Assembly: GCF_009931435.1 (NCBI RefSeq)
Contig: NZ_CP043414.1
Strand: one strand, 5' to 3'
DNA: 64,000 nucleotides
DNA from: Escherichia coli
GTDB taxonomy: Bacteria; Pseudomonadota; Gammaproteobacteria; Enterobacterales; Enterobacteriaceae
A program made the position numbers and the translations under genes. Under the pieces are notes generated by a model. It was given only the letters and a program-made list of their open reading frames with translations. It ran no database searches and was not told the origin of the DNA. Positions 28,227-56,050 of this stretch are shown here, one piece after another (position 1 is the first letter of the stretch; each line of letters opens with the position of its first letter).

Positions 28227-28395
28227 GAAGTTTGGTAGATTTTAGTGGGTATAGAGTTATCTTAAACATTTACCTTTTTAATCAATGGATTAAGTGTTCT
28301 TTAACATAATGGATGTGTTGTTTGTGTGATCCTGTAAAGTTGGTAGATTGTGACTGGCTTAAAAAATCATTAATTAATAATAGGTTATGTTTAGA
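28227..28395 (+). promoter_or_regulatory. CRISPR leader of the queE-proximal array
   Basis: AT-rich; AGTTGGTAGATTGT motif at 28339-28352, 43 bp before repeat 1, and a related TTTGGTAGATTTT at 28231-28243. Confidence 0.7.
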
Positions 28396-29218
28396 GAGTT
28401 CCCCGCGCCAGCGGGGATAAACCGGCGGTAAAATTGTTGCTACCGTCTGGCCCTTGCGAGTTCCCCGCGCCAGCGGGGATAAACCGACGGTGCAGGATCT
28501 GTAATTCTTGCTCGCGATGAGTTCCCCGCGCCAGCGGGGATAAACCGAGTTATCAGGATTATTCCCGCTCCGCCGCCAGGAGTTCCCCGCGCCAGCGGGG
28601 ATAAACCGTCGTTTTTGTGGTGGGAGTGTGCGGATTGGTAGAGTTCCCCGCGCCAGCGGGGATAAACCGGCTGACATTGTCAGCTATAACCTTACAATGT
28701 GGAGTTCCCCGCGCCAGCGGGGATAAACCGACGTCCCGCTATTTCCTGGACAGTGTGTAGCGGAGTTCCCCGCGCCAGCGGGGATAAACCGGCGGCGCTA
28801 ACGTGATAATCACGATCAATTATGAGTTCCCCGCGCCAGCGGGGATAAACCGCGGGCGTTAACCTTTTTATAGGCATCTTCCTTGAGTTCCCCGCGCCAG
28901 CGGGGATAAACCGGCTTGCAGCAGCTGCGCCAACATCTGAATACGGAGTTCCCCGCGCCAGCGGGGATAAACCGCTTTTTCCCGTGACAAGATCCAGTTA
29001 ACTGTTGAGTTCCCCGCGCCAGCGGGGATAAACCGCATCACTGGACGCCCATTTGAATAACTCACAGGAGTTCCCCGCGCCAGCGGGGATAAACCGATTC
29101 AGCAAATAGCGAATTTCATAAATATGATGTGTTCCCCGCGCCAGCGGGGATAAACCGTACGTTAAACGCCATCTGTCATGGGTCGTCATGTGTTCCCCGC
29201 GCCAGCGGGGATAAACCA
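28396..29218 (+). CRISPR. type I-E CRISPR array: 14 repeats, 13 spacers (32-33 bp)
   Basis: 29-bp repeat GAGTTCCCCGCGCCAGCGGGGATAAACCG at 28396, 28458, 28519, 28580, 28641, 28702, 28763, 28824, 28885, 28946, 29007, 29068; last two repeats (29129, 29190) are GTGTT variants and the final one ends ...AAACCA. Confidence 0.97.
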
Positions 29219-29671
29219 CCATATAACCCGTTATCTCTTTCTCAAGTTTTTATATTAGCTGTACTTGTAATAAGCAACATATCCACATAACACCTCATGT
29301 TCAAAATAGTTCCCCATGCCAGATAAGTTCACAATTATCGATACAAAAAATCAAATTTAATCAAAGTGTTATATGTATAATCCTTAAACCGTTAAGAAAT
29401 TTTAATATATTATTTTTTTAATATTAATTAATGCCTGTTAATTTTTTCTTTAGAATAACAGTGTATTTTTTAAGCTTGTTATTCATTGATTAAGTAATAA
29501 ATCTGGAAGTTTGTCTTTGTTTTGAGGCTAATGAGTGGTTTTACATAACCGCCTCTATACGCTGTTGATGAATAGTTCTTATGAATAAAGATATCCAGTT
29601 CATACTTTAAGTGAAAATTGATAAAGTGCGATTCGTATTGTCTTTTATTCTAAAGACATCGAGTGTAGTTA

Positions 29672-29809
29672 ATATTCCTTGTAAAAACAGGGATAAACCG
29701 AACTAGTTAAAGTTTTTATTATGTTCCCTGCATCAGCGGGGATAAACCGGACTTGTTATCATTTTTTAAGTTGTCGAACTTATGTTCCCCGCGCCAGCGG
29801 GGATAACCA
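29672..29809 (+). CRISPR. degenerate mini-array remnant (about 3 decayed repeats, one clear 32-bp spacer)
   Basis: TTCCTTGTAAAAACAGGGATAAACCG (ends 29700), ATGTTCCCTGCATCAGCGGGGATAAACCG (29721-29749), 32-bp spacer 29750-29781, ATGTTCCCCGCGCCAGCGGGGATAACC (29782-29808). Confidence 0.75.
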
Positions 29810-29855
29810 TTCAGGTATGTTCAGGCCGGGCAGTTTCCCGCCCGGCCTTCCTCAC

Positions 29856-53614: not shown

Positions 53615-53618
<4 letters not shown>
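52968..53618 (+). CDS. casE: Cas6e/CasE, pre-crRNA endoribonuclease
   Basis: ORF track starts 52830; the ATG at 52968 with AGGAGG RBS gives MYLSRITLHTGQLSPAQLLHL...; contains FNLRANP and C-terminal glycine-rich GYGKSRAFGCGLM motifs. Confidence 0.88.
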
Positions 53619-54828
<1,210 letters not shown>

Positions 54829-54924
54829 GTTACCCGTTCTTTAAAAATAAGGAAATGTTTGAATTTAGTTGGTAGATTGTTGATGTGGAATAAAATTGTT
54901 TAAAAACAGATACGTATGCTTAGT
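54829..54924 (+). promoter_or_regulatory. CRISPR leader of the cas2-proximal array
   Basis: AT-rich 96 bp; AGTTGGTAGATTGT at 54868-54881, 43 bp upstream of the first repeat. Confidence 0.8.
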
Positions 54925-56050
54925 GTGTTCCCCGCGCCAGCGGGGATAAACCGTGGATTATGACGCCAGAGAGCTTCCTGTTTGCGTGTTCCCCGCGCCA
55001 GCGGGGATAAACCGCTGGCTAATAACATCCCACTGAATATTATTTCGTGTTCCCCGCGCCAGCGGGGATAAACCGAGGTGTGGCATGCGGGGAATTATGA
55101 TCCGGTAGTGTTCCCCGCGCCAGCGGGGATAAACCGTGACAACGGCCGGCCGCTCTTTTTGCGGTCATGTGTTCCCCGCGCCAGCGGGGATAAACCGATC
55201 ATCGGCATCATCTCGTGATACTCATCCGGCGTGTTCCCCGCGCCAGCGGGGATAAACCGCCCAGGCTTTACGTGAGCTGGCGGATGTGGCCGTGTTCCCC
55301 GCGCCAGCGGGGATAAACCATACGGTCAAGCGATATCAGGGGTACTGTGTCGTGTTCCCCGCGCCAGCGGGGATAAACCGGGCGCCGCATCTTTATCGTA
55401 AAGCATGTAAAGGTGTTCCCCGCGCCAGCGGGGATAAACCGACCGCTCACACCCAGACAAGCGCCACTAACGTGTGTTCCCCGCGCCAGCGGGGATAAAC
55501 CGAACGCCGCATCAGCTAAATACGCTAAAAAAATGTGTTCCCCGCGCCAGCGGGGATAAACCGCGGCTGATACTCAGGAGCAGGCCAGAGAGCGTGTGTT
55601 CCCCGCGCCAGCGGGGATAAACCGTACCACCTGTGTATTGAGTTACGTCGCCGGGGGTGTTCCCCGCGCCAGCGGGGATAAACCGGAGCTTCATCGGTGG
55701 TTCTGGGAGCAACGGGAGTGTTCCCCGCGCCAGCGGGGATAAACCGGCACAAGTGACTACATCAAGGATGGGGAATGGGTGTTCCCCGCGCCAGCGGGGA
55801 TAAACCGATTAACATTGCAATTGAATTGACGCGTATGAGGTGTTCCCCGCGCCAGCGGGGATAAACCGCAGGCAGCACGGCGGGTTTTGCCCGGATATTT
55901 GTGTTCCCCGCGCCAGCGGGGATAAACCGCAAAACCAATAGGTGCTTTCCACATTGCAGAAGTGTTCCCCGCGCCAGCGGGGATAAACCGCTCTCGGTTC
56001 TGGGGTACTGTTACCCATAACTGAGCTCCCCCGCGTCAGCGGGGGAACTC
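54925..56050 (+). CRISPR. type I-E CRISPR array: 19 repeats (18 canonical plus degenerate terminal), 18 spacers
   Basis: 29-bp repeat GTGTTCCCCGCGCCAGCGGGGATAAACCG at 54925, 54986, 55047, 55108, 55169, 55231, 55292, 55352, 55413, 55474, 55535, 55596, 55657, 55718, 55779, 55840, 55901, 55962; terminal degenerate GAGCTCCCCCGCGTCAGCGGGGGAACTC (56023-56050); spacers 31-33 bp. Confidence 0.97.

Follow-up and report, generated by a model that had tools for sequence, protein, structure and literature searches.

The window analyzed here is a 64,000-nt stretch of the Escherichia coli contig NZ_CP043414.1 (assembly GCF_009931435.1), and it carries two CRISPR arrays together with cas1e and cas2e. Compared over 2 kb, its sequence shows 100% identity to E. 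coli strain 2020CK-00188. Array 1 adjoins queE (ygcF), on its downstream side, and represents CRISPR-2. Its first repeat, the target of integration, occupies 28396..28424 on the plus strand (GAGTTCCCC... / GAGTTCCCCGCG...), and the array of 14 repeats ends at about 29220. Array 2, which lies downstream of cas2e and represents CRISPR-1, starts with the repeat at 54925..54953 on the same strand (GTGTTCCCC... / GTGTTCCCCGCG...), has 18 repeats and ends at about 55992. The repeats of both arrays are of the I-E type (GTGTTCCCCGCGCCAGCGGGGATAAACCG). Both cas genes are on the plus strand and comprise full-length ORFs: cas1e (53615..54538; 307 aa; TIGR03638, E = 1.5e-114), predicted to encode the integrase subunit that contacts the motif described below, and cas2e (54535..54828; TIGR01873, E = 3.2e-39). 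Along its entire length, the Cas1 protein matches the Cas1 chain of E. coli present in eight PDB entries, including 5wfe, the Cas1-Cas2-IHF-DNA complex.

The two leaders share a 14-base motif, AGTTGGTAGATTGT, which occurs in exactly two copies in the window, both on the plus strand: at 28338..28351 in front of array 1, on the queE side, and at 54867..54880 in front of the cas2-adjacent array 2. In both leaders the gap between the motif and the first repeat is 44 bp, and both copies occupy leader positions -58..-45. The core GTAG (28343-28346 and 54872-54875) falls at -53..-50, the published integrase anchoring site. A preliminary description of this DNA had recognized the motif and its equal distance from the repeat in the two arrays; these observations hold, while the coordinates it gave (28339-28352 and 54868-54881) are each one base too high, and the distance is 44 bp rather than 43. 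The expected number of exact 14-mer matches in 128 kb over two strands is ~5e-4 by simple arithmetic, and shuffled sequences contained on average 0.37 matches when up to two mismatches to the 14-mer were allowed. A related sequence, TTTGGTAGATTTT, lies at 28231-28243, exactly where it had been placed earlier, and we return to it below.

In addition, a degenerate mini-array of two mutated repeats (29721 and 29782) lies at 29690-29812, 500 bp downstream of array 1, with a truncated GGGATAAACCG at about 29691. Presumably it is the CRISPR-2.2 remnant. No TTGGTAGATT-like motif was found upstream of it, and for this reason the mini-array probably cannot acquire spacers.

The leaders of the window and both leaders of E. 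coli K-12 can be aligned from -70 to -1 without gaps. The two leaders of the window are clearly paralogues, judging by this alignment, so the recurrence of the motif is not an independent coincidence. The motif is the longest and best-conserved block of this region, the two window leaders being identical at 14 of 14 positions within it, compared to 26 of 56 (46%) in the rest of the 70 nt. Over its last 70 bases, the array 1 leader differs from K-12 CRISPR-2 at two positions only, -65 and -62, with no difference in -61..-1. In K-12 CRISPR-1, positions -58..-45 are occupied by the variant GGTTGGTGGGTTGT, meaning that the sequence drifts while the spacing is kept. In nine diverse E. coli CRISPR-2 leaders the motif is invariant, while 57 of the 338 intergenic positions vary.

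Two further features of the array 1 leader lie upstream of the motif. At 28329-28336 (-67..-60), K-12 CRISPR-2 reads TGATACTAT, resembling an extended -10 element (TGnTACTAT), and this strain reads TGATCCTGT; the two changes abolish the resemblance. Immediately upstream, at 28298-28328 (-98..-68), the 31-nt stretch TCTTTAACATAATGGATGTGTTGTTTGTGTG is fully invariant in the nine E. coli CRISPR-2 leaders, while 17% of the intergenic positions vary. Given that the likely CRISPR-2 transcription start has been placed ~95 nt upstream of the first repeat (see below), this stretch may be a promoter or belong to the 5'-leader RNA.

The spacing was then compared across species. We sampled leaders downstream of Cas2e homologues from one genome per species, yielding 80 loci, and the presence of the motif was not a criterion. 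An array started 80-250 nt after cas2 in 71 of the 80 loci, and removal of leaders with at least 90% identity left 60 leaders. In 53 leaders the tetranucleotide GGTR starts at -54; in five it starts at -53 and in one at -56, while one leader (L034) lacks it. Hence, the motif is, as a rule, neither missing nor variably placed in other I-E leaders, as 59 of the 60 keep it within 2 nt of -54, and the fixed spacing proposed in the preliminary description is a general property of this sample. Information content rises sharply to a peak at -56..-45, where the consensus is TTGGTRGA.T.T; the most conserved bases are G-53 (98%), T-45 (90%), G-54 (88%), and G-50 (80%). A separate second peak at -22..-16 (AAAWCAA) corresponds to the WATCAA core of the IHF site, with C-18 and A-17 each conserved in 95% of the leaders, and there are minor peaks at T-10 and at -5..-1 (TTAGA).

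Two of the sampled loci are unusual. The only cas2-adjacent leader without the motif, L034, comes from a metagenome-assembled genome of an uncultured Enterobacteriaceae bacterium and precedes atypical repeats (GGGTTCCTCTTGCGAGTGGGGATAAACC). In L005, from Escherichia sp. MOD1-EC7003, just 18 nt of the first repeat precede a truncation or replacement, and the motif has the sequence TTGGTAAATTGT. L034 and L005 are possibly decaying loci. Leader length, measured from the end of cas2 to the first repeat, is in most cases either 86-87 nt or 98-99 nt (loci L003-L082), which defines two classes.

The position and sequence of the motif make it very probable that this is the upstream element by which Cas1-Cas2 recognizes the type I-E leader, also called the integrase anchoring site or upstream recognition motif. 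As such it is already known, being a characterized upstream docking site established in 2016-2017. In an alignment of I-E leaders, Yoganand et al. (NAR 2017; PMC5224486) recognized two conserved boxes, an IHF site at -9..-35 and a second box at -44..-59. In that study, randomizing -46..-57 (CBS2) or just -50..-53 (CBS2(C)) abolished spacer acquisition in vivo, and both the IHF-dependent supershift with Cas1-2 and integration in vitro were lost as well, while the mutation of -46..-57 affected IHF binding only slightly and did not affect bending; the positions -50..-53 were named the integrase anchoring site, IAS (PMC5224486). Both copies in the window, at -58..-45, lie inside the published -44..-59 box, with GTAG at the essential positions -53..-50. 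In the account of Wright et al. (2017) given by a 2023 review (PMC10011333), IHF bends the leader by ~180 degrees, and -50..-55 contacts Cas1-Cas2 at the junction. The same delivery of the upstream motif to Cas1 by an IHF bend is described in PMC5815122 and in a preprint on the type I-F structure (bioRxiv 10.1101/2023.05.26.542337).

Following the published work on E. coli leaders, IHF would bind the leader at approximately -35..-9 and bend it sharply. By folding the DNA back on itself, the bend would allow the positions around -50..-55 to touch Cas1 of the Cas1-Cas2-prespacer complex that sits on the leader-repeat junction. Such a two-part contact, with the junction and with the upstream motif, would pick the first repeat over any other and drive the initial nucleophilic attack, on the leader side. 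The constant 44 bp between motif and repeat would then correspond to the stretch of DNA required to pass around IHF and come back to the integrase. While the sequence of the motif, its location and its conservation at a constant distance are observed here, the protein contacts and the loss of acquisition upon mutation come from the published work, and we infer that both leaders of this strain function as the tested ones do. The suggestion of the preliminary description that the motif is a positioned protein-contact element directing Cas1-Cas2 to the leader-proximal repeat agrees with the fixed spacing in I-E leaders and with the literature, while the IHF-type site that it named as one option does not.

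Indeed, the sequences expected to bind IHF are located elsewhere in the same leaders. An IHF-like site lies between the motif and the repeat in both of them, in the region -35..-9 taken from the literature. In array 1 (28361..28387, plus strand), an A-tract is followed by TAATAATAGGTTA at 28375-28387 (-21..-9), with two mismatches to the consensus WATCAANNNNTTR; in array 2 (54890..54916, plus strand), an A-tract is followed by the core AAACAGATACGTA at 54904-54916, also with two mismatches. At the sequence level, by a consensus scan, two mismatches in the -21..-9 core is the commonest value among the 60 leaders (28 of 60). That the motif itself is the IHF binding site is hard to believe. It does sit in the AT-rich leader of an IHF-dependent system, and the minus strand of its array 2 copy, AATCTACCAACTA, has two mismatches to WATCAANNNNTTR. 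However, two or three mismatches over the nine specified positions of WATCAANNNNTTR is what the motif region has on either strand in both leaders, so the comparison with the consensus yields no IHF site in the motif, and the IHF stretch is separate, at -35..-9. Moreover, the cross-species profile has a distinct peak of the WATCAA type at -22..-16, and the published IHF site is at -9..-35, with the minor effect on binding and the lack of effect on bending reported for the -46..-57 mutation (PMC5224486) also speaking against IHF as the ligand of the motif.

Two other explanations dispense with the docking of the integrase altogether. One is that the motif has no function, the leaders being recent duplicates and the 14-mer a leftover of their identity. 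The leaders are, indeed, evident paralogues, with a gap-free alignment over -70..-1. However, identity that is merely left over would not be concentrated in one block, where it is complete as opposed to 46% in the remaining 56 of the 70 nt, nor would the core retain its position in 53 of 60 leaders from distant Gammaproteobacteria with diverged flanks, and the published mutagenesis shows function (PMC5224486); we give this explanation almost no credence. The other takes TTGGTA for the -35 hexamer of the sigma-70 promoter from which the pre-crRNA is transcribed, so that the geometry of a promoter, and not the docking of the integrase, would set the constant distance to the repeat. CRISPR leaders are known to carry the array promoter, and in array 2 TTGGTA is followed, after 16 nt, by TAAAAT (9 of 12 consensus positions; 54869-54896), while array 1 has a weaker pair, TTGGTA-16-AAAAAT (8 of 12). 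However, an acceptable -10 element (at least four of six positions, with A2 and T6) is found 16-18 nt after TTG in just 8 of the 60 leaders, and a 9 of 12 match in one; as a usable -10 element is this rare, a sigma-70 promoter does not explain the conservation. Besides, the best-conserved bases, G-53 (98%) and G-50 (80%), are the non-consensus ones in a -35 hexamer. The promoter geometry predicts a start near -22, whereas a review quoting Pul et al. (2010) gives transcription starts ~50 nt (CRISPR-1) and ~95 nt (CRISPR-2) upstream of the first repeat. Finally, integration in vitro, which is free of transcription, is lost upon mutation of -50..-53 (PMC5224486). Altogether, we consider the promoter explanation unlikely, the integrase anchoring site being the preferred one. 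A minor overlapping promoter role in this lineage is a possibility, and the motif bases, whose conserved G's may lie near the CRISPR-1 start, may also be constrained by transcription initiation.

The claim made earlier that arrays 1 and 2 are both competent for adaptation is plausible from the sequence. Both leaders have the motif, the IHF-like core at -21..-9, TTAG(A/T) at -5..-1 and an intact first repeat, while cas1e and cas2e are intact; together with the identity of the array 1 leader to that of K-12 CRISPR-2 over -61..-1, this makes competence likely. As a counterpoint to the reading as an anchoring site, the proximal IHF cores have two mismatches to the 13-nt consensus, and array 1 carries T rather than the 95%-conserved C at -18. 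For array 1 this is offset by the same identity to K-12 CRISPR-2.

Further upstream, both leaders contain a second pair of similar elements. The related sequence TTTGGTAGATTTT at 28231..28243 (plus strand) is at -165..-153 of array 1, shares the GGTRGA core with the docking motif, and is a candidate distal docking motif. Downstream of it, a perfect IHF consensus, AATCAATGGATTA, occupies 28280..28292 (plus strand; -116..-104) and is a candidate distal IHF site. In array 2, the counterparts are found at the 3' end of cas2e: GGTGGATTT at 54774-54782, in codons 80-82 (Pro80-Val81-Asp82), and the perfect IHF consensus AATCAATAAGTTA at 54820..54832 (plus strand; -105..-93), which spans the two final codons of cas2, its stop codon and GTTA. 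In both leaders of the window (28234 and 54774) and in K-12 CRISPR-1, the GGTRGA precedes the distal IHF consensus by exactly 46 nt. The window has ten perfect matches to WATCAANNNNTTR, compared to 2.65 expected from shuffles, and two of the matches are the plus-strand ones described here, one per leader. Another of the ten, at 29359-29371, falls within the AT-rich spacer that separates array 1 from the mini-array.

Of the 60 leaders, 31 match the distal IHF consensus perfectly and 41 with no more than one mismatch; in 37 of these 41, the match starts 6 nt before the end of cas2. Its commonest positions are -93, in 24 leaders, and -105, in 8, with a 12-nt step between the two. In the sampled loci L003-L082 the distal pair lies at about 1738-1803, embedded in cas2 codons 80-82 and 96-97 and the stop codon. 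The position of the distal consensus, -93 or -105, follows the leader-length class, and in the orphan array of the window it is -116, so the steps are 12 and 11 nt; being close to one helical turn, these steps hint at a phasing constraint.

As the pair overlaps a coding region, we considered codon usage in 44 cas2 genes less than 93% identical at the DNA level, the reference being the same amino acid elsewhere in cas1 and cas2. Kinship being ignored in all four Fisher tests, Pro80 is encoded by CCG in 37 of 44 genes (84%, compared to 38% elsewhere; p = 9e-10), Val81 by GTA or GTG in 40 of 42 (95% and 49%; p = 3e-10), Asn96 by AAT in 33 of 34 (97% and 67%; p = 5.4e-05), and Gln97 by CAA in 31 of 36 (86% and 40%; p = 7.1e-08). 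In contrast to Pro80, Pro93 is never encoded by CCG (0 of 44), and the bias persists in most genomes that use CCG rarely. In the nine E. coli CRISPR-2 leaders, one of the 13 positions of the distal motif varies (A<->G, with GGTRGA kept), compared to 12 of 30 in the flanks. These patterns point to selection acting at the DNA level on the pair comprised of the distal motif and the IHF site.

The pair could serve as a second docking module, have a transcriptional role, or be an mRNA feature. We tentatively suggest the first, while considering it less probable than its opposite by a wide margin. E. coli-type I-E leaders would then carry a second, distal docking module, in which GGTRGA precedes a perfect IHF consensus by 46 nt. 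In cas2-adjacent leaders the module would be encoded within the final 18 codons of cas2 and maintained by selection on synonymous sites, while the orphan CRISPR-2 leader would retain it as non-coding DNA. As in the I-F leaders with their two IHF sites, a second IHF bend could offer the integrase a second Cas1-binding motif, tuning the efficiency or fidelity of integration. As the part of the leader essential for acquisition is, according to work cited in PMC5224486, the segment of up to ~60 bp adjoining the first repeat, the distal pair would be at most modulatory. The I-E system of E. coli has been described as having one IHF and one motif ~50 bp upstream (bioRxiv 10.1101/2023.05.26.542337); the same preprint refers to Santiago-Frangos et al. 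(2021) for multiple IHF sites in some I-E leaders. Our literature search for a distal IHF site in I-E leaders yielded only this I-F structure preprint; Santiago-Frangos et al. (2021) may already cover the distal I-E module.

We also considered whether the DNA upstream of the array 1 leader is a decayed 3' end of cas2, and do not claim this. The scores of local alignments were non-significant, being reached by 123 of 500 and 218 of 500 shuffles, and by 68 of 1000 and 470 of 1000 (with the cas2 genes of the window and K-12). In the single register set by the distal IHF consensus, the identity was 30/80 and 32/80, compared to ~20-22 +/- 4 expected (p ~0.01-0.04), which is suggestive only.

The main element explains how new spacers come to enter a I-E array exclusively at its leader end, and this has been known since 2016-2017. 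Its presence in another E. coli strain provides independent confirmation only, the motif and its spacing being seen in 59 of the 60 leaders that were collected blind to the motif. New value may reside only in the distal pair of GGTRGA and the IHF consensus overlapping the end of cas2. Should this pair prove functional, a regulatory layer would be missing from the minimal 60-bp leader on which most adaptation assays in E. coli rely, and a protein-coding gene would carry a recombination signal in its synonymous sites.

In type II-A systems, a leader-anchoring sequence was reportedly found by McGinn and Marraffini in 2016 to fix integration to the first repeat. That sequence, which has been contrasted with the I-E case (PMC5224486), abuts the repeat and requires no bending protein, whereas the I-E motif requires IHF and is separated from the repeat by 44 bp. 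A parallel in geometry is the analogy drawn by Yoganand et al. (PMC5224486) with the arm-type Int sites of phage lambda attP, where IHF U-turns bring a distant site to the recombinase bound at the core, although the enzyme family, the sequences and the number of sites differ. In the type I-F leader (bioRxiv 10.1101/2023.05.26.542337), ~150 bp with two IHF sites and inverted-repeat motifs are folded, and, likewise, IHF-bent DNA offers upstream motifs to the integrase; unlike in I-E, the motifs are inverted repeats contacted by Cas2/3. The same preprint mentions some I-E leaders with multiple IHF sites and motifs 100-200 bp upstream, an arrangement that the candidate distal GGTRGA and IHF consensus described here would resemble at the level of sequence. 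The closest match is the IAS of the E. coli I-E system itself (PMC5224486), with the same system, the same position and the same intervening IHF site, the array 1 leader being the K-12 CRISPR-2 leader from -61 to -1. Nothing substantive differs from the IAS of K-12, except that the cas2-adjacent leader of this strain has the identical 14-mer, while K-12 CRISPR-1 has GGTTGGTGGGTTGT.
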